Below, piece after piece: positions 1,869 to 42,273 of a stretch of 64,000 nucleotides of DNA. Positions within the stretch are counted from its first letter, which is position 1. Each line of letters starts with the position of its first letter. The DNA lies in NCBI GenBank assembly GCA_964016885.1, contig OZ024749.1:38626001-38690000 (forward strand), given 5' to 3'. Position numbers and translations under genes: made by a program. A model generated the notes under the pieces. That model was not told where the DNA came from, made no database searches, and saw only the letters and a list, made by a program, of their open reading frames with translations. The DNA is from Eledone cirrhosa (Eukaryota).

Positions 1869-2300
1869 TAAATGTCTTGCACAGAGTTGGCACATTCACA
1901 GGCAATAGACGGCTGTGGTTAGACTTCACCTACTTTTACATGTCGTTTGAGCCCTCCTGCTGATCTACACTCTTTTCCAAGTGCTTCACAGGTATGATGA
2001 GTAGCTTCTCCGACAACAGCCTAGTAGTAGTCAACCATTAGCCTCACTTTGTGACTGCGACGATGACATTTACGTCCACTTCCTCCCCCCATCACCACCG
2101 CTCAGTCAAAATGATCAACCAACACCAACATCTACAACAACAACAACAACAACAACAACAACAGCATCAAAAAGAACATCACCAACATCTACAAAAACAA
2201 CAACAACATCAAACGATAAAAAGCTAAACAACACACACACACACGTGTATATATATATATATACACGTGTATATGTATATATATACACGATTCTACCCTA

Positions 2301-4439
2301 TTGGACCTAAAAAAGTCTAAAAAAATCCATGTCCACTCGGACAAAACTGGTAATTTGTATCATATGGATATTGAACATTATAACGAGTTCATATATAAAG
2401 AACTCAGAAAAAATTATAAAAAATCTAATAATGTGTCACTCACCAACATCAACAACAAAACACACAACATAGTAAAAAAACTAAACATTGAAGATAGAAC
2501 TGAACCTTTGGCATTGAAAAGACCACACTTCAACCTGAAAGATCACAAATCTAACTTTAACTCAAATCCTTCTATTAGACTTATATGTCCCTCCAAATCA
2601 GATATTGGAATAATTAGCAAAAAAATTTTAGATAGAGTCATCCCACAAATAAGAAAACACGTTATTTTACCACTCTGGGAAAACACCTCCCATGTAATTA
2701 ACTGGTTTAAAAATATTAGGTGTAAATCTTCTGCTTCTTTCCTACAATTTGATATAGATAATTACTATTCTTCTATATCACCTATACTCCTGAACAAAGC
2801 ATTGATATTTGCTAAAAATAGATCTAATTTAACTTTGGATGACATTAACATTATTACACATGCTAGACTAACACTTATTGAATTTCAGAATGAATACTGG
2901 ACCAGAAACACATACAGTAATCTTTTTGATATTACTATGGGTTCAAGCGATTCCGCCCAAATTACTGATCTTGTGGGCCTCTTTCTCCTTTTCAACATAA
3001 ATGCCTCTTTTCCCCACCTCAAAGGTGGTTTATATCGTGATGACTGTCTTCTTCTTTCTAACAACCTTAGCCTTTCAGAAATCGAAAAAAACAAAAAACA
3101 TATTAGAACTTTCCTTAAAGACTATTATAATCTTAATATTACTTTTGAAAAAACAAGTAAAGTAGTAAATTTCCTAGATATAACTTTAGATTTAGCTACG
3201 GGTATCTACCAACCTTACCATAAACCTAACCAAAACTTACATTACATACACTTACAATCTAATCACCCTAAATCTATCCTTAAAAACCTTGCATATAATA
3301 TATCACTTAGAATTTCTAACCTTTCTTCTAACCAAGATGTATTTGATAAAAATGCGACCTTCTATAACGAAGCTCTAGATAGAAGTGGCCACAAAAATAG
3401 ATTAGAGTATATACCTTCTACTAAAAATACTGTAAGCATACAACATAATATTACCAACAAACACCAAATGAAAAGTACACACCTAAATGCCACCCACACT
3501 ATACCCCAAAATACTAAATCTTCTAATATAAAGTATAGTAACTCTCAAAAAACTACTCATCATACAACTATAATAAATATTAATAATAAAACTCCTAATA
3601 AAAAAGATAAAACACCTAAATCTACAAATATAACTAAAAATAGTTGTGGTGAGATCATTAACATTAATCCTCCTAGTAAAAATCACGATACAACCTATAA
3701 AAATAATAAAAATAATAAACAACATAGAAACCGTAATAGACGGGTTACTTGGTATAATGCTCCTTTTAATTTACAAGTTAAGGATAATATTGCTAAAAAA
3801 TTTTTTTATATCCTTGAGAAAAACTTCCCGCCAAACCACAAATACCATCAAATCTTAAATAGGTCTACAGTTAAATTCTCATACTCTACAACAAATAACA
3901 TAAAACAAAATATAAGTGCATATAATGCATATAAATGTAAGAAAACCATAAGTATACCACCAGTACATCAAATTAACCATAATATCTCCTCAAATACAGA
4001 ATTAACGAAAGGATGTAACTGTAGAAACAAAGCAAACTGCCCATTAAAAGGGAATTGTCTTGTTAACAACATAGTCTATAAATGTAATGTTAAAACTAAA
4101 GATTCTATTTGCTCATATATAGGAGCTACCTCTAACAATTTTAAGACAAGGTTTAATACCCACAAGCATAGTTTTAAAAATGCCGCACTGGCTAATACAA
4201 CATCTCTAGCAGAAAAAATCAATAGTTATAAAAATAAGAATATAAAATATGATTTGACCTGGAGTGTGCTCAAAAGAGCCACCCCTTATCAAAATAATAG
4301 AAATGAATGTAGATTATGTTCCCAAGAACTATTTGAAATAATGAAGTCTAAGGATATCTTATTAAATAAACGACAGGAATTAATTATATCGTGTAATCAT
4401 AAACTAAAAAAAACATTTAAATATTATAAACCTAATTAA
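2301..4439 (+). mobile_element. Penelope-like retroelement ORF (RT plus C-terminal GIY-YIG endonuclease), 5'-truncated but uninterrupted over 712 codons
   Basis: DKTGNLY, LKDHK, IRLICP, FDIDNYY, MGSSDS, YRDD, VNFLDITLDL, YHKP and SNHP RT/thumb motifs. CNCR..CPL.GNCL linker. IVY...YIG..FKTRFNTH GIY-YIG, then CRLC..E..LN.R.E..C.H. No ATG at the start, which abuts a (TA)n/palindrome. Confidence 0.93.
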
Positions 4440-11990: not shown

Positions 11991-13619
11991 ATACTTTGGG
12001 AGGGTCATGTTGCCAATAAGAAACACACGCACCAGTTGCTTTCACTTCAATTTATTATATATTTATAAATTTACAAATTTACAAATCTATCAATTTCTGG
12101 TTGGTTGGTTGGTTCCACAACCAGATAGTTGTTTATATATAGTCATAGTCCTTTCGTCACACACTCTGTGACCTCCTCAGTGACCGGGGATTCCCTTCTT
12201 TGTTTCTGTGCCTCTCCTTTGTTCTGCCCTACGCCATTTTGTTTCTGTGTGTGTGTTGTGTGCTCAGTTGTGTGTTGTATGTGTCTCTCTAGTTCTTCGG
12301 GGTTGCACATGCGGGACACATTTCTCATCACCCGTACCAAATCCGCAATCAGGTGATGAGAAATGTGTCCCGCATGTGCAACCCCGAAGAACTAGAGAGA
12401 CACATACAACACTTCATCCACCGTATGCAGTTCTCTGGCTACAATCAGAGAGATAGAATCAGAGTGTATAGAGGAGCCAGAACCAAATGGGAAAAAATGA
12501 TAAATAATGACATAAATGGGACCTGCCCCTTGTATAGGAGCAAATTTTGGAATAGAATAGAAAGAACTAGGAACAAGGCTAATAGAATAAACTCATGGTA
12601 TGATAGCAATAAATACCAGAGTGTAATGTTCATCGATACAACCCCTAGAGGCGAACTAGCCTACAAATTTAGAAGGGCCCTAAATAAACATAAACTCAAT
12701 ATTAAGATAGTAGAAAGACCAGGTACCTCCGTAAAAACACTTATTAGCAAGACATACCCTTTTCAAAGACCCTCATGTATAGATAAGAAATGTATAACCT
12801 GTAAAATAAGCCCCCGTATTAACTGTAAAACTAGAAATGTAGTGTATAGCATAAGATGTACTGAAGGACAATGTAGAAACAAAAATATAGTGTACATAGG
12901 TGAGACAACTCGTAGTATAGGGGAACGGATAAATGAACACTGGCGAGACCTTCAAGATAATAAAGAATCATCTGTACTCTACCAACATGCTAAGATAGAA
13001 CACAAGGGTAAATTAGAGAACATAGAAATAAAAATAGAATCTACACACAGAAAAGATGCAATGTTTAGACAAATTACAGAGGCAATAAACATAAAAGAAT
13101 TACAACCAAAATTAAATAGAAAATATGAGTGGAACAGCAACATCACAACTTACAATTAAGGACAAAATTAAAACACACACACACATAGAACAAACAACCA
13201 ACCAATAACATGTAAATAAATAAACAAATAGATAAATGAACATAAACACACACAGACACCCGGATGTGGCGCATGCGCAAACTGAGCACACAACACACAC
13301 ACAGAAACAAAATGGCGTAGGGCAGAACAAAGGAGAGGCACAGAAACAAAGAAGGGAATCCCCGGTCACTGAGGTCACAGAGTGTGTGACGAAAGGACTA
13401 TGACTATATATAAACAACTATCTGGTTGTGGAACCAACCAACCAACCAGAAATTGATAGATTTGTAAATTTGTAAATTTATAAATATATAATAAATTGAA
13501 GTGAAAGCAACTGGTGCGTGTGTTTCTTATTGGCAACATGACCCTCCCAAAGTATAACAATATCGGTTTCAACACACGATTTCAGATTAAGAATCTTGCT
13601 AAACAAATTCAGAAACGAA

Positions 13620-16519: not shown

Positions 16520-17418
16520 ATATGCATGTATGGTCCCGTAACTCCTCAAAGGAGTCGTATGGGCTCCCTGTTGACATATACATATATATATATCAATCAA
16601 AACCAACAATATATATATATATGCATGTATGGTCCCGTAACACCTCAAAGGAGTCATATGGGCTCCCTGTTGACATATATGCATGTATGGTCCCGTAACA
16701 CCTCAAAGGAGTCATATGGGCTCCCTGTTGACATATATGCATGTATGGTCCCGTAACACCTCAAAGGAGTCATATGAGCTCCCTGTTGACATATATGCAT
16801 GTATGGTCCCGTAACACCTCAAAGGAGTCGTATGAGCTCCCTGTTGACATATATGCATGTATGGTCCCGTAACACCTCAAAGGAGTCATATGGGCTCCCT
16901 GTTGACATATATGCATGTATGGTCCCGTAACTCCTCAAAGGAGTCGTATGGGCTCCCTGTTGACATATATGCATGTATGGTCCCGTAACACCTCAAAGGA
17001 GTCATATGGGCTCCCTGTTGACATATATGCATGTATGGTCCCGTAACACCTCAAAGGAGTCATATGGGCTCCCTGTTGACATATATGCATGTATGGTCCC
17101 GTAACACCTCAAAGGAGTCGTATGGGCTCCCTGTTGACATATATGCATGTATGGTCCCGTAACACCTCAAAGGAGTCGTATGGGCTCCCTGTTGACATAT
17201 ATGCATGTATGGTCCCGTAACACCTCAAAGGAGTCGTATGGGCTCCCTGTTGACATATATGCATGTATGGTCCCGTAACACCTCAAAGGAGTCGTATGGG
17301 CTCCCTGTAGACATATACATATATATATATCAATCAAAACCAACAATATATATATATATATATGCATGTATGGTCCCGTAACTCCTCAAAGGACTTGTAT
17401 GGGCTCCCTGTTGACATT
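16520..17418. repeat. 58-bp tandem repeat (14 copies)
   Basis: atatatgcatgtatggtcccgtaacacctcaaaggagtcatatgggctccctgttgac at 58-bp spacing, with outer copies separated by (TA)n-tcaatcaaaaccaacaa spacers. Confidence 0.92.
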
Positions 17419-23602: not shown

Positions 23603-24070
23603 TGTTGAATGACTGAGAGTACAAGACTCCTCTGGATGGGACAAATGACTCGTTCACAGTTGAATGACTGGGAGTACAAGACTCCCTCTGGATGGGACAA
23701 ATGACTCTTTCACAGTTGAATGACTGAGAGTACAAGACTCCCTCTGGATGTGACTAATAAATCTGTCACAGTTGAATGACTGAGAGTACAAGACTCCCTC
23801 TGGATAGGACTAATGACTCTTTCACAGTTGAATGACTGAGAGTACAAGACTTCTTCTGGATGTGACAAATGACTGTTTCACAGTTGAATGACTGAGAGTA
23901 CAAGACTCCCTCTGGATGGGACAAATGACTCGTTCACAGTTGAATGACTGAGAGTACAAGACTCCCTCTGGATGGGACTAATAAATCTGTCACAGTTGAA
24001 TGACTGAGAGTACAAGACTTCTTCTGGATGTAACAAATGACTCTTTTGCAGTTGAGTGACTGACAGTACA
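23603..24070. repeat. 56-bp tandem repeat (~8.5 copies) in TMEM256 intron 3
   Basis: gttgaatgactgagagtacaagactccctctggatgggacaaatgactcgttcaca at about 56-bp spacing. Confidence 0.9.
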
Positions 24071-24920
24071 ATTTTGTCCCCAAATTAACCATAGCTGCTA
24101 ATATTCATTTTCAGCTGAATTGACTAGTTTAACCCTTTTGTATTTAAACTGGCCATATCCGGCAAGAATTCTCTAACCTCTTTCTCTTCAAACCGGCTGT
24201 AACTGGCTGCTCATACCTATGTTGTGGTATTGTTCTTAAAATGAATATCAAAATCTCATAGATTCAGTATTATGTGAGATAAAGTGTTTACCATGAAAAT
24301 ACAATAGTAAATATAGAGTAATATAAATGCTAGAGGGTTAACCTGAAATGTATTTCCTTGCTGAAGGTCACAACATACTGCCTGGTTTGAAGATTAAACC
24401 CTTACAATTGTATACCCAACATATATTATCATGACACTAGCGCTAGGGAGGGTGTCATGTCCTTCATATATAATAACTGCAGAGCCCTCTCTAACCACCA
24501 CCCTTTGTTTTGTTTTGTTTTTTTGTTTTATAGAGTTTCTACAGCTGGATGTCCTTCCTATGATAATTAGTATTTCACTATATCTATGTAATAGATATCC
24601 CTTTTTGTTTTTATTTCATTTGAGATTTTACCTTAAAACTTACTTAACCCTTTAGCATTTAAACCAGCCATATCCAGTCAGAATTACCTCACCTCTTTCT
24701 GTTTAAACTGGCTGTAACTGGCCACTCATACTGATGTTGAGGTATTGTTTTCAAAATAAATAATATCAAAATCTCATAGATTCAATATTATGTGAGATAA
24801 CTATGTGAGGTAAAGCCTTTACTATGAAAATACAATAGTAAATATGGAGTAATGTAAAATATAGAGTAATGCTAAAGAGTTAAATAATAATCTTATTTCT
24901 ATTTGTCATATTTTTTTCAG

Positions 24921-29700: not shown

Positions 29701-30066
29701 TATATATATATATATATAAATAAAGGAACGATCGACTTTCGTCAAATCGGACCGAGGGAACAATGTTTCCTTTGGTCTTTCCAATTGCTAATACTATCTA
29801 TCGGTCGCAACTCCAGGTAGAAGGAGTAACGTAAAATAAAGTGTCTTGCTCAAGGACATAACGCATCGCCTGGTCCAGGAATCGAACTCACAATCGTACG
29901 ATTGCGAATCCAATTCTCTAACCACTCAGCCACACCCCGTCGGGGTACTACTCGTTCCTATTACCCACTCTACTACCCTAAGTATTGAGTACTTTGGTGT
30001 GTTATGGTCCACCTGGTTCCTTACCACATTTCCTTCGTTATATATATATATATATACGGAATTCTA

Positions 30067-30104
<38 letters not shown>

Positions 30105-30388
30105 CGAAGGAAATGTGGTAAGGAACCAGGTGGACCATAACGCACCAAAGTACTCAATACTTAGGGTAGTAGAGTGGGTAACAGGAACGAGTAGGACCCC
30201 GACGGGTGAGCTCAAGCCGTTTCGACGGCTAATTCTGGTCCAGAATTAGCCGTCGAAACGGCTTGAGCTCAGCCGTCGGGGTCCTACTCGTTCCTATATA
30301 TATATATATACAGTAGAATTCCGTATATATATTTATATATATATATATATATGTATATTATTTATATATATATATATATATTATTTAT

Positions 30389-31180: not shown

Positions 31181-31359
31181 CATACATATATATATACATA
31201 TATATATATAAACATGGGTGTGTACGTGTGTATGTAATTAATATACTATTATGTTCCGAACTTAGTACTATGTACGTTAATACTTCACCTAATTTCTCTT
31301 CCTCGTAATGATATTTTGGATCCTTCTTTACCTAACCTATATATACAAACAGTTGTCTT

Positions 31360-32290
31360 CCCTCAGCTGTCTCCACTCACCTAACTCCACTCAGCTGTCT
31401 CCACTCACCTAACTCCACTAAGCTGTCTCCACTCAGCTATCATTGCTCAGCTGTCTTCACTCAGCTGTCTCTACTCACCTAACTCCACTCAGCTGTCTCC
31501 ACTCACCTAACTCCACTAAGCTGTCTCCACTCAGCTATCATTGCTCAGCTGTCTTCCCCCAGCTGTCTCCACTCACCTAACTCCACTCAGCTGTCTCCAC
31601 TCACCTAACTCCACTAAGCTGTCTCCACTCAGCTATCATTGCTCAGCTGTCTTCACTCAGCTGTCTCTACTCACCTATCTCCACTCAGCTGTCTTTACCC
31701 AGCTGTCTTTACTCAGCTGTCTCCACTCAGCTATCATTGCTCAGCTGTCTTCACTCAGCTGTCTCTACTCACCTATCTCCACTCAGCTGTCTTTACCCAG
31801 CTGTCTTTACTCAGCTGTCTTCACTCAGCTATCTTCACTTAGTTGTCTTCACTCGGCTGTCTCTACTCACCTATCTCCACTCAGCTGTCTTTACCCAGCT
31901 GTCTTTACTCAGCTGTCTCCACTCAGCTATCATTGCTCAGCTGTCTTCACTCAGCTGTCTCTACTCACATATCTCCACTCAGCTGTCTTTACCCAGCTGT
32001 CTTTACTCAGCTGTCTTCACTCAGCTATCTTCACTTAGTTGTCTTCACTCGGCTGTCTCTACTCACCTATCTCCACTCAGCTGTCTTTACCCAGCTGTCT
32101 TTACTCAGCTGTCTCCACTCAGCTATCATTGCTCAGCTGTCTTCACTCAGCTGTCTCTACTCACCTATCTCCACTCAGCTGTCTTTACTCAGCTGTCTTT
32201 ACTCAGCTGTCTCCACTCAGCTATCTTCACTTAGTTGTCTTCACTCGGCTGTCCTTCATTCAGCTATATTCACTCAGTTGTCTGCACTCA
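31360..32290. repeat. CAGCTG-rich minisatellite (~14-15-bp subunits with higher-order repeats)
   Basis: Variants of ctcagctgtctcca/ctcacctatctcca are repeated over about 930 bp, with a 98-bp higher-order period visible at the start. Confidence 0.9.
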
Positions 32291-32575
32291 ACTGTTTCAT
32301 TTCAATTCCCATCACCCAGTACCACATCATCTAGCCTTATTATGTTCAGTCCAGAGAGTCATGTTTCAAGGATCCCCACCCAGTTTTAAATAAAAATTAA
32401 CCCTTTTTCTATATTTCTAATAAAAACACAGCCTATACTTTTCAAATTGTTTTGCAAATAATCGAGAATTTAGCTATCTAAATAACATAACTGACTTTCG
32501 CATTATTAAGTTGGTGTTTCGAACATAACTTAGCAATTTCTTACTTATAAATGATGAAAGGTTTATATATATATG

Positions 32576-34379: not shown

Positions 34380-34415
<36 letters not shown>

Positions 34416-34724
34416 GTAGATAAATTGAAACAAAATGAAAACGAAATTTCATTTCTCACTCTTAGTATGGCACTTACTTAAATGTAAGTATGCATGTATA
34501 CGTACATACATATATGTATACAGACGTACAGTAGCATGCACATATATATATATATATATACATATATACATACATATGCATACAGGTACACATACATATA
34601 TGCACGTATCAGTTTAGCGGCGCTAACGTCGCTTTGTTCGTTTGTAAACAAACTGAACAGCCTGAATTTATGCCATACGGTGTTAAGGCAACCACGTAAC
34701 CTTTTTGTTCAACACTGACACAGG

Positions 34725-34769
34725 AACGATGTACTAGTTTCAAGCTTGTTAGCTATCATCAGCACCGTT
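34725..34769 (-). ncRNA. Type I hammerhead ribozyme (repeated every 468 bp: 35193, 35661, 36129, 36597, 37065, 37533, 38001)
   Basis: Minus strand: aacggtg CTGATGA t agct aaca agct t GAAA ctag TA catcgtt. Stem I has 7 bp with one G-U, stem II 4 bp, stem III is the palindrome ACTAGT, and the GUA cleavage falls between 34732 and 34731. Confidence 0.88.
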
Positions 34770-37700
34770 TACCCATCTGCCAGATAGTTGAACGTTCGAA
34801 AGTATATACTTTCCTTATGAAAATTAACGGCTGAGCAGCCTAATTTGCATATTGAGTGAGTTAAATCGGTCAGGCATACCGAAAACGATAAATTGAAACA
34901 AAATGAAAACGAAATTTCATTTCTCACTCTTAGTATGGCACTTACTTAAATGTAAGTATGCATGTATACGTACATACATATATGTATACAGACGTACAGT
35001 AGCATGCACATATATATATATATATATACATATATACATACATATGCATACAGGTACACATACATATATGCACGTATCAGTTTAGCGGCGCTAACGTCGC
35101 TTTGTTCGTTTGTAAACAAACTGAACAGCCTGAATTTATGCCATACGGTGTTAAGGCAACCACGTAACCTTTTTGTTCAACACTGACACAGGAACGATGT
35201 ACTAGTTTCAAGCTTGTTAGCTATCATCAGCACCGTTTACCCATCTGCCAGATAGTTGAACGTTCGAAAGTATATACTTTCCTTATGAAAATTAACGGCT
35301 GAGCAGCCTAATTTGCATATTGAGTGAGTTAAATCGGTCAGGCATACCGAAAACGATAAATTGAAACAAAATGAAAACGAAATTTCATTTCTCACTCTTA
35401 GTATGGCACTTACTTAAATGTAAGTATGCATGTATACGTACATACATATATGTATACAGACGTACAGTAGCATGCACATATATATATATATATATACATA
35501 TATACATACATATGCATACAGGTACACATACATATATGCACGTATCAGTTTAGCGGCGCTAACGTCGCTTTGTTCGTTTGTAAACAAACTGAACAGCCTG
35601 AATTTATGCCATACGGTGTTAAGGCAACCACGTAACCTTTTTGTTCAACACTGACACAGGAACGATGTACTAGTTTCAAGCTTGTTAGCTATCATCAGCA
35701 CCGTTTACCCATCTGCCAGATAGTTGAACGTTCGAAAGTATATACTTTCCTTATGAAAATTAACGGCTGAGCAGCCTAATTTGCATATTGAGTGAGTTAA
35801 ATCGGTCAGGCATACCGAAAACGATAAATTGAAACAAAATGAAAACGAAATTTCATTTCTCACTCTTAGTATGGCACTTACTTAAATGTAAGTATGCATG
35901 TATACGTACATACATATATGTATACAGACGTACAGTAGCATGCACATATATATATATATATATACATATATACATACATATGCATACAGGTACACATACA
36001 TATATGCACGTATCAGTTTAGCGGCGCTAACGTCGCTTTGTTCGTTTGTAAACAAACTGAACAGCCTGAATTTATGCCATACGGTGTTAAGGCAACCACG
36101 TAACCTTTTTGTTCAACACTGACACAGGAACGATGTACTAGTTTCAAGCTTGTTAGCTATCATCAGCACCGTTTACCCATCTGCCAGATAGTTGAACGTT
36201 CGAAAGTATATACTTTCCTTATGAAAATTAACGGCTGAGCAGCCTAATTTGCATATTGAGTGAGTTAAATCGGTCAGGCATACCGAAAACGATAAATTGA
36301 AACAAAATGAAAACGAAATTTCATTTCTCACTCTTAGTATGGCACTTACTTAAATGTAAGTATGCATGTATACGTACATACATATATGTATACAGACGTA
36401 CAGTAGCATGCACATATATATATATATATATACATATATACATACATATGCATACAGGTACACATACATATATGCACGTATCAGTTTAGCGGCGCTAACG
36501 TCGCTTTGTTCGTTTGTAAACAAACTGAACAGCCTGAATTTATGCCATACGGTGTTAAGGCAACCACGTAACCTTTTTGTTCAACACTGACACAGGAACG
36601 ATGTACTAGTTTCAAGCTTGTTAGCTATCATCAGCACCGTTTACCCATCTGCCAGATAGTTGAACGTTCGAAAGTATATACTTTCCTTATGAAAATTAAC
36701 GGCTGAGCAGCCTAATTTGCATATTGAGTGAGTTAAATCGGTCAGGCATACCGAAAACGATAAATTGAAACAAAATGAAAACGAAATTTCATTTCTCACT
36801 CTTAGTATGGCACTTACTTAAATGTAAGTATGCATGTATACGTACATACATATATGTATACAGACGTACAGTAGCATGCACATATATATATATATATATA
36901 CATATATACATACATATGCATACAGGTACACATACATATATGCACGTATCAGTTTAGCGGCGCTAACGTCGCTTTGTTCGTTTGTAAACAAACTGAACAG
37001 CCTGAATTTATGCCATACGGTGTTAAGGCAACCACGTAACCTTTTTGTTCAACACTGACACAGGAACGATGTACTAGTTTCAAGCTTGTTAGCTATCATC
37101 AGCACCGTTTACCCATCTGCCAGATAGTTGAACGTTCGAAAGTATATACTTTCCTTATGAAAATTAACGGCTGAGCAGCCTAATTTGCATATTGAGTGAG
37201 TTAAATCGGTCAGGCATACCGAAAACGATAAATTGAAACAAAATGAAAACGAAATTTCATTTCTCACTCTTAGTATGGCACTTACTTAAATGTAAGTATG
37301 CATGTATACGTACATACATATATGTATACAGACGTACAGTAGCATGCACATATATATATATATATATACATATATACATACATATGCATACAGGTACACA
37401 TACATATATGCACGTATCAGTTTAGCGGCGCTAACGTCGCTTTGTTCGTTTGTAAACAAACTGAACAGCCTGAATTTATGCCATACGGTGTTAAGGCAAC
37501 CACGTAACCTTTTTGTTCAACACTGACACAGGAACGATGTACTAGTTTCAAGCTTGTTAGCTATCATCAGCACCGTTTACCCATCTGCCAGATAGTTGAA
37601 CGTTCGAAAGTATATACTTTCCTTATGAAAATTAACGGCTGAGCAGCCTAATTTGCATATTGAGTGAGTTAAATCGGTCAGGCATACCGAAAACGATAAA

Positions 37701-38248
37701 TTGAAACAAAATGAAAACGAAATTTCATTTCTCACTCTTAGTATGGCACTTACTTAAATGTAAGTATGCATGTATACGTACATACATATATGTATACAGA
37801 CGTACAGTAGCATGCACATATATATATATATATATACATATATACATACATATGCATACAGGTACACATACATATATGCACGTATCAGTTTAGCGGCGCT
37901 AACGTCGCTTTGTTCGTTTGTAAACAAACTGAACAGCCTGAATTTATGCCATACGGTGTTAAGGCAACCACGTAACCTTTTTGTTCAACACTGACACAGG
38001 AACGATGTACTAGTTTCAAGCTTGTTAGCTATCATCAGCACCGTTTACCCATCTGCCAGATAGTTGAACGTTCGATAGTTGAATGTTCGATAGTTGAACG
38101 TTCGATAGTTGAACGTTTGTTTCAATTTATCGTTTTCGGTATGCCTGACCGATTTAACTCACTCAATATGCAAATTAGGCTGCTCAGCCGTTAATTTTCA
38201 TAAGGAAAGTATATACTTTCGAACGTTCAACTATCTGGCAGATGGGTA

Positions 38249-38293
38249 AACGGTGCTGATGATAGCTAACAAGCTTGAAACTAGTACATCGTT
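38249..38293 (+). ncRNA. Type I hammerhead ribozyme in the inverted terminal copy of the array
   Basis: aacggtgCTGATGAtagctaacaagcttGAAActagTAcatcgtt can be read directly on +; predicted cleavage after 38286. Confidence 0.88.
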
Positions 38294-38700
38294 CCTGTGT
38301 CAGTGTTGAACAAAAAGGTTACGTGGTTGCCTTAACACCGTATGGCATAAATTCAGGCTGTTCAGTTTGTTTACAAACGAACAAAGCGACGTTAGCGCCG
38401 CTAAACTGATACGTGCATATATGTATGTGTACCTGTATGCATATGTATGTATATATGTATATATATATATATATATGTGCATGCTACTGTACGTCTGTAT
38501 ACATATATGTATGTACGTATACATGCATACTTACATATATGTAGATACATCTACATATAGTTTGTATAATTTTGTACATAGATCTGTTGAATATGCATGC
38601 CAATTCTAACACATATATATCCTAGAAACGATCGTTAAATAATGAACTTTTTTTGTTTAATATAAGGAACTGTTTCATTGTTTTATTCATTATTTGTTTA

Positions 38701-39106
<406 letters not shown>

Positions 39107-41039: not shown

Positions 41040-41795
41040 TAGTAGGGGTGTTAGTGGGATGAGTGAGTGTGGAGCGGGGGTGTGGGTGGAGCGGGGAGAG
41101 AAGGGTGTGTGTGGTTCTATGGAGGGAGTGTGGTGTACTGGTGTGTGTGTAGTTTGGTGAAGAGGTGTTAGTGGGTGTTAGTATACGGGAGGTGGGGAGG
41201 GGTGGAAAGCAGGTGTGAGTGGGGGTTAGTGGTGGTAGGGTGTGTAGAGTTGGTGGTGTACGAGGGTGTGTGGGTACGTGTGCGTGGGGTTGGGGGTGTT
41301 AGTGATGTTAGTTGCGTGTGGGGTGGGTGGTGTAAGTGGGTGCGTGTGTGCGTGTGATAAGGAGGGGGAGGAGGAGAAGAGGGGAGGGAAGGGATGTTAG
41401 TATGTTAGTTGGGGAAGGGTGGTCAGATGAGGGGTGGAGTGGAGGTGTTAGTATTGTTAGTGTGGGGTAGGCGGTGAAAAGGAGGGTGTGTTAGTGGTGT
41501 TAGTGGGGGATAAGTGTTGGGGGAGGGGGCGGTCGAACGCTAAAGGAATAAGGGTGGGGAGTTCAGGCCGGGGGGAGTGTGGGTCTGTAAGATGAAGATA
41601 GTGCGTTGTTCGACCGTAAGGCGATGGGCGGGTGTTCCGTGGCACTGGAGTAGGCCACAGACTGTGAGATGGCGTGCGGAGTGTCCAGGGCCACCAAAGT
41701 GGCGGGCGATGGGGGAACTGCCCCCGAGACGAATATCCCGGAGGTGCTCCGTGACTCGGTCCGCCAGGCGACGTCCCGTCTGTGCGACATAAGTC
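40017..41795 (-). mobile_element. PLE 3' fragment: GIY-YIG end, long C/A-rich 3' region and terminal hammerhead
   Basis: 41540-41795: YVAQTGRRLADRVTEHLRDIR...IARHF...H...E...IF.LQT..P.GLN (Neptune-like GIY-YIG end). HHR CTGAAGAagggcttatgcctGAAACGTC at about 40108-40135, then AATAAA and (TA)n. A related terminus lies at about 28382-28495. Confidence 0.85.
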
Positions 41796-42273
41796 CGTAG
41801 ATATATATATAAATTTAGCGAGAATCGCATTTCGGCGAGTAGAAATTAACGAAACGCAACTTCCATATTGTGCAGACAAGCGCTCCATGGATATGAAGAA
41901 GATACCAGAGCTATAAACATAAGTTAAAATGGCCATACACGCTGAGACGATGGTTAAGAAGCCATTAAACACCATAGCCAAAAAAGCGAACAAGCTAAAC
42001 GAGTCAAACAAAATGAGATATGATTGAAATAGTTACCCGGACCCTCGGGGAAGATGGAATACTCCGAAAATGAGTTTCTGCAACACCTAAATCAATAATA
42101 CTGTCTGCTTATAAAAAATAAATATATATATATATATATAGCCTAAGAGTTTAGCTTTAAACTATCTCTGTTATTGTATTAAATTATATATATATATATA
42201 TATATTTATAAAAAAATAAATATATATTATTTAAGGGTATGTCAATATTTGTTTATAAAACTGATCTATATTA

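Follow-up and report, generated by a model that had tools for sequence, protein, structure and literature searches.

Within the window analyzed here, a 64,000-nt stretch of the Eledone cirrhosa genome (contig OZ024749.1, positions 38,626,001 to 38,690,000), we find a tandem array of 468-bp units which, on the features that can be tested in DNA, is a non-LTR retrozyme carrying a predicted ribozyme, and which belongs to a large, recently active, dispersed family without LTR structure. This retrozyme is very probably mobilized by a Penelope-like element (PLE), and the explanation that we favor overall, namely a very recent insertion of a PLE-mobilized non-autonomous retrozyme whose cycle would pass through an RNA circle, appears likely. 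The assignment to the retrozyme class, already proposed in a preliminary description of this DNA, is borne out by tandem non-coding units with a type I hammerhead motif, by their dispersal, by the absence of an LTR and by a target-site duplication longer than 4 bp.

The array consists of 7.8 identical 468-bp units and an inverted arm of 421 nt; it contains nine type I hammerhead motifs, eight of them on the minus strand and the ninth on the plus strand. Units 1–7 (34419–37694) show no differences, internal (TA)n included, the 468-bp periodicity runs up to 38075, and 38116–38536 is an exact 421-nt inverted match to the unit. The unit has a GC content of 36% and is non-coding: the longest ATG-initiated open reading frames of the array encode 74 aa (plus strand) and 40 aa (minus strand), and the reading frame of an autonomous PLE (reverse transcriptase, RT, plus GIY-YIG endonuclease) is absent from it. 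Thus, the undiverged head-to-tail units, the lack of coding capacity and the terminal inverted copy, all noted previously, stand as described; the start of the array, which had been placed in a (TA)n tract, does adjoin such a tract, but GTAG intervenes and belongs to the target duplication. The stretch common to both junctions indicates a target duplication of 8–13 bp, a value measured at this locus only, as (TA)n hides the duplication at most others. The features of the insertion, with unit positions (q) numbered from 34419, are as follows:

34410..34422, plus strand: left copy of the target-site duplication, 8 unambiguous nt and up to 13 with element microhomology; ends the (TA)n tract.
34420..38075, minus strand: left arm of 7.8 identical 468-bp units, which ends outward at start site A (q2) and has its hammerheads in minus-strand sense.
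34420..34482, minus strand: 62-nt 'tail' from start site B (q64) to site A (q2), at the outer end of the left arm only.
34536..34608, no strand assigned: internal TA/CA-rich simple-sequence segment of unit 1, the same in every unit here and differing among loci.
34698, plus strand: near-private variant A280 (C in the other young copies examined), present in 9/9 units of the insertion.
34725..34769, minus strand: type I hammerhead of unit 1 with a GUA site and a predicted cut at 34732/34731; recurs each 468 bp to 38045.
34844..34851, minus strand: octamer ATGCAAAT, a possible internal promoter element, about 115 nt upstream of the cut site.
38059..38117, plus strand: arm junction, with about 3.9 copies of a 15-nt template segment, preceding a palindromic template hairpin and then the right arm.
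38116..38536, plus strand: inverted right arm of 421 nt, which ends outward at start site B (q64) and has its hammerhead at 38249–38293.
38535..38547, plus strand: right copy of the target-site duplication, 13 nt being the longest stretch common to both junctions (at 34410 and 38535).
38561..38709, plus strand: 3' end piece of a young autonomous Hydra-like PLE, adjoining the array in the flank and outside the element.

The 15-nt repeats at the arm junction look as if the enzyme had stalled and then realigned.

The unit is not confined to this locus. Its 31-nt hammerhead core has 11,257 exact occurrences in the genome (control, 0), and a 62-mer of the youngest subfamily has 4,103 exact copies. 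A DNA search with the unit returned 45 matches on 10 contigs at 83–100% identity among the 40 of 73 candidates that were scored, confirming the dispersed arrays that had been anticipated elsewhere in the genome. An older subfamily with a unit of ~442 bp, ~82% identical to that of the window, occupies loci L061–L063 (G000:C2, 383.016–383.044 Mb), where a >30-kb array with higher-order repeats has the appearance of a retrozyme turned satellite. A second tandem hammerhead family, with a 311-bp unit (L165, L015, L018, L041, L042, L065 and L195), shares the weak ribozyme design, has an end resembling site A and terminates at two positions ~30 nt from each other, and several further hammerhead families are present among the loci examined.

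Most dispersed copies are built of two head-to-head arms with their 3' ends facing outward into (TA)n, so that the inverted copy at our locus is the normal insertion form of this retrozyme family. The outer ends sit at two fixed sites, A (q2) and B (q64), located 62 nt apart; the permuted start points that had been expected were not seen. We surveyed the ends of 85 loci, comprising 55 of the 58 clusters among the first 100 core matches, 16 further loci from the first 100 matches to the 62-mer, the window itself and 13 loci from the DNA search, with seven long or complex arrays set aside and with the end motifs for the A and B calls written after inspection of the data. Both outer ends could be called at 31 loci, one end at 41 and none at 13. 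Where both were called, 28/31 loci paired one A with one B end (binomial p 4.6e-6) and three had like ends, two of which proved by eye to be miscalls; at four of the mixed pairs the motif lies 76–149 nt off the aligned end, the short arm having been masked. At one locus, L154, 1,250 bp separate an A-ended from a B-ended arm; the two are arranged tail-to-tail, differ in haplotype, have their inner ends at closely similar unit positions (434 and 440) and may represent either two insertions or one that was rearranged.

This footprint of two arms, a tail on one end, fixed ends and a short target duplication is the 'tail' signature of PLEs. Published PLE insertions, in the portions of these reports available, comprise an inverted 5'-truncated copy, a 30–40 bp tail on one end and target duplications of 8–10 bp (bioRxiv 2021.04.23.441226; PMC3846280), and for a lizard PLE in vitro it is described that both target strands are cut and extended, and that reverse transcription starts at two internal sites whose spacing equals the tail (PMC11167929). 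The fixed tail ends, the head-to-head arms and the target duplication hence support a PLE as the mobilizer, as the preliminary description had supposed.

Young autonomous PLEs of the same genome display this geometry as well. A young Hydra-like PLE encodes an 812-aa open reading frame (124 scored matches at 99–100% identity) with RWR, DKT and CxCx5C motifs that fit the Hydra clade as far as it is described in PMC8557442, and its family ends at two sites 137 nt apart; a Neptune-like PLE (CX4CxxC linker) shows a ~58-nt tail in both of the two head-to-head insertions viewed. These clade labels are based on motifs, without a tree. Searches with the PLE protein gave no significant match in Pfam or PDB, and an Atlas search led to RT and GIY-YIG clusters. 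Comparison of the unit with four PLE families (two Hydra-like, one Neptune-like and one Poseidon-like) yielded only short or AT-rich matches and no pLTR similarity; site A weakly resembles one Hydra-like end (14/1000 shuffles), in a post hoc comparison that was one of 10.

The window itself contains PLE copies. Positions 2220–4439 (plus strand) hold a 5'-truncated, otherwise open and very young Hydra-like copy with RT and C-terminal GIY-YIG domains; full copies of this PLE form tandem units of 6.6 kb that include a long UTR of simple sequence and a hammerhead-like motif whose stem II spans ~115 nt. The 3' part of a young Neptune-like PLE lies at 12293–13156 (plus strand), with open frames of up to 1,261 aa elsewhere and a hammerhead in its pLTR, and the GIY-YIG end of a third, Poseidon-like family, which has many near-identical copies, at 41543–41845 (minus strand). 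Further Hydra-like families occur in the genome beyond those compared with the unit. A small head-to-head inverted element within (TA)n at 38825–38947, with a hammerhead-like core, is probably another PLE-type product, and an inverted repeat at 30000–30142 consists of two element ends that face one another from either side of a (TA)n tract. Other minisatellite arrays of the window, at 16617–17317, 23604–24071 and 31350–32299 (periods 58, 56 and 28/98 bp, respectively), gave nothing in a strict hammerhead scan.

What RNA was copied at this locus can be approached through variant A280. The assembly contains 11 copies of a 98-mer carrying it, nine here and the other two as single units at separate loci; by a rough estimate, independent mutation among 4,000 units could account for about that many of the latter. 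Fixation of the variant in every unit of both arms points to a monomer bottleneck followed by repeated copying. The earlier view of a very recent single insertion is upheld. Among 25 loci examined, variants present in every unit of their own insertion were also found at L206, L208, L214 and in the A-arm of L154. Linear cut monomers were considered as the usual template and rejected: they would halt the enzyme or leave a scar at the cut site, yet only one of the 80 inner ends from our junction set (41 hand-picked two-arm loci, 40 of which yielded a junction) lies near that site, and all nine passes here are exact, so that a circle fits best. We therefore consider a monomeric circular template reasonably probable for this insertion.

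Elsewhere in the family, uncleaved multimers probably serve as templates. At L203, two variant units follow each other in an order that recurs in both arms, and one arm contains this pair twice; at L218, five variants are common to one unit from each arm; and at L040 two unit types alternate. These three arrangements would fit multimer templates or later rearrangement and not a monomer circle, and at L024 and L154 the two arms differ in haplotype. Monomer circles alone thus do not suffice, and multimers left uncleaved, circles of several units or subsequent rearrangement of the DNA must also act. The earlier picture of a single RT running repeatedly round a single 468-nt circle thus retains its monomer template, given A280 in 9/9 units, but is incomplete, as it leaves out two separately primed arms, their fixed starts and the heterogeneous multimer template to which L203 points.

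The same PLE-mobilized element could also have had a linear template, namely the uncleaved multimer transcribed from a homogeneous parent array, making a circle unnecessary for this event. We judge this unlikely: other multi-unit A280 arrays are absent from the assembly, although a homogeneous parent may be missing from it, and, as a new variant cannot reach every unit through linear copying, a monomer-to-multimer step would still be needed one generation earlier. Expansion at the DNA level, by which a PLE-type insertion of one or two units would later have grown to 7.8 units through unequal exchange or slippage, does occur in this family, as the >30-kb array of higher-order structure at L061–L063 attests. 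For the present locus it seems quite improbable, in that zero differences over ~4.1 kb, including nine (TA)n tracts, leave little time for it and that both arms of young insertions often have several units (L203, L205, L206 and L207), as if born so.

The inner junctions connect varied unit positions, with an overlap of 1–20 nt at 21/40, a blunt joint at two and intervening letters at 17, some of which stem from alignment limits. Sixteen of the 80 inner ends lie near site A, an excess that we did not use because mapping at the edge of the query is imprecise. Self-priming by fold-back on an antisense template, instead of two target-primed events, is a published hypothesis for PLEs (PMC3846280, in the part available), and two of the 40 junctions (L052 and L092) are indeed near-symmetric fold-backs. 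As an origin of the head-to-head form it is nevertheless very improbable, given that most junctions join unrelated unit positions, 21/40 with the short overlaps described above, that both outer ends lie at fixed sense-strand sites fused to AT repeats of the target, and that a PLE extends both target strands in vitro (PMC11167929, in its available text). Perfect identity combined with a fold-back is typical of assembly or chimeric-read artefacts, but an architecture that recurs at dozens of loci of differing ages, with family-specific ends, a target duplication and arms stopping at different unit positions, makes such an origin scarcely credible.

The preliminary description had assigned a complete type I hammerhead to the minus strand of each unit. 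The motif and its predicted cut (34732/34731) are retained, but two of its helices are of weak design. Stem I has 7 bp and is extendable past a bulge, stem II has 4 bp above a basal U·U mismatch, and stem III comprises only 1 bp capped by a palindromic CUAG loop. With such a stem III and palindromic four-base loop, two copies could pair through a 6-bp palindrome (computed, −4.8 kcal/mol); by computed folding energies, the monomer constrained to its catalytic fold reaches −8.9 kcal/mol versus −16.5 for a misfold. Motifs of such weak design are described as acting as dimers (PMC4209133; PMC7229834; both in the portions available), and, as given in the accessible text of a recent preprint, 8/9 Xenopus retrozyme dimers did not cleave in vitro (bioRxiv 10.64898/2026.07.22.740005). 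From these folding models, the predicted hammerhead is probably a weak, dimer-dependent form and not a robust monomer.

The hammerhead matches the Rfam HH9 model with 18.5 bits (gathering score 52), and a wide Rfam scan gave no gathering-level support, only simple-repeat matches to miRNA models and the sub-threshold HH9. Despite this score, the core is kept across subfamilies: in 38 older units, which share ancestry, it is 94% identical to the window unit as compared to 73% for q191–290. Variation is common at core position 7, in loop II and in distal stem I among 154 distinct haplotypes, many from loci picked by the core pattern, a selection which favors conservation. The whole monomer is more stable in computed folding than 100/100 shuffles (z −6.83), partly owing to TA-rich pairing.

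Newt satellite 2 has an snRNA-type internal promoter consisting of an octamer and a proximal sequence element, a promoter for which the literature search brought up no publication. Here, the octamer is found in 170/233 distinct upstream regions and is 97% identical in the 38 older units (chance expectation, 0.03 per unit); it is a possible internal promoter element, a lead only. A public run index queried with window positions 34610–34890 listed matching runs under 16 organism labels and 15 studies, 16 rows having at least half of the words, with no RNA run among them, which has no bearing on expression. Four of 24 indexed runs were inspected: two raw-read runs gave 0 reads, one contig set gave 0 contigs and a second contig set gave one unrelated 35-nt piece despite a listed 0.84 of words, all with no bearing on expression or presence. 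Contamination, close relatives and transfer are indistinguishable as sources of the index matches.

Taken together, these results suggest a model in which arrays would be transcribed along the hammerhead strand, paired weak hammerheads would cut the transcript into 468-nt monomers and a host ligase would close these into circles. An endonuclease-bearing PLE protein would then nick both strands of a (TA)n target ~8–13 nt apart, and each freed 3' end would prime reverse transcription at the fixed internal site A or B via 2–4 nt of AT microhomology. At this locus, the A-primed strand would have made 7.8 rounds and the B-primed strand 0.9 round on the same monomer, before the two cDNA ends were joined head-to-head. 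For retrozymes, circles as templates and PLEs as mobilizers have been proposed (PMC7229834, in its available part); against the model count the weakness of the monomeric hammerhead, the failure to match the unit to any of the four PLE families compared and the description of a PLE that in vitro prefers unprocessed RNA and does without hammerhead cleavage (PMC11167929). More specifically, the family may preserve a trace of the complete PLE integration reaction as it takes place on an RNA circle made by the ribozyme. A single PLE protein dimer would hold this circle, with one active site starting at A and the other at B, 62 nt away; the two would be primed by different target strands, and either could travel round many times. 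We offer this last reading tentatively and think it somewhat more apt to be wrong than right; if true, it would explain the long-puzzling head-to-head PLE insertions with a tail on one end and would constitute the first genomic evidence for retrozyme circles as a transposition template.

These observations bear on whether retrozyme circles are reverse-transcribed into genomes, and by which enzyme, as well as on how PLEs make tandem, inverted insertions with a tail on one end. The family offers thousands of young, near-identical copies for a tally of ends, junctions and unit variants, and two or more young PLE families of the genome have open reading frames that look intact, so that both questions become testable by computation and by in vitro assays as published for the lizard PLE.

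Among the titles listed in our search of the literature on hammerheads and retrozymes, none concerned a cephalopod retrozyme, with most subscription journals, Repbase and Dfam lying outside the search, so that the family may already be catalogued; likewise, none of the titles listed dealt with a retrozyme integration footprint. The metazoan non-LTR retrozymes of coral, mussel and axolotl/newt, insofar as described in the available text of PMC7229834, share with the present family tandem non-coding units with one type I hammerhead each, a GC content below 50%, thousands of copies and target duplications of >4 bp. Stem III here resembles that of axolotl HHR_Amex1 (1 bp, palindromic tetraloop) and the U·U mismatch that of HHR_Amex2; unlike in those retrozymes, both weakening features occur in one ribozyme, and our family is known from DNA alone. 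The words 'inverted', 'tail', 'microsatellite' and 'cephalopod' are absent from that text as available.

A recent preprint, in its available text, argues that retrozymes are non-autonomous PLE sequences of 51–972 bp (bioRxiv 10.64898/2026.07.22.740005), a range by which our unit is not at the upper size limit, contrary to what had first been thought. These derivatives are likewise retrozymes, with up to seven units in most families, and co-occur with active PLEs. Their link to PLEs consists of pLTR similarity and co-occurrence, whereas here it is the integration footprint, pLTR similarity not being found in the four families compared; the main text, as available, names no mollusc and describes no integration footprint, inverted arms or tails. 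Non-autonomous Chlamys elements such as MRC1, in the source text available, have 3' ends similar to those of their autonomous partners, and their clade is reported without canonical hammerheads, unlike the retrozyme here.

The closest parallel in insertion form is offered by the endonuclease-bearing (EN+) PLEs, namely Poseidon_Ac (PMC11167929), rotifer Penelope (PMC3846280) and Hydra and Naiad (PMC8557442), which, on the available accounts, likewise form head-to-head inversions with a tail at one of the ends, start reverse transcription at two internal sites and insert into AT-rich or (TA)n targets with duplications of 8–10 bp. In contrast to these elements, the retrozyme has no open reading frame, its tail measures 62 nt instead of 30–40, and both arms are multimers of whole units. 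Overall, the class to which this element belongs is already known; what seems, as far as our searches reached, to be new is the retrozyme family itself, together with a counted integration footprint that ties a retrozyme to the PLE mechanism.
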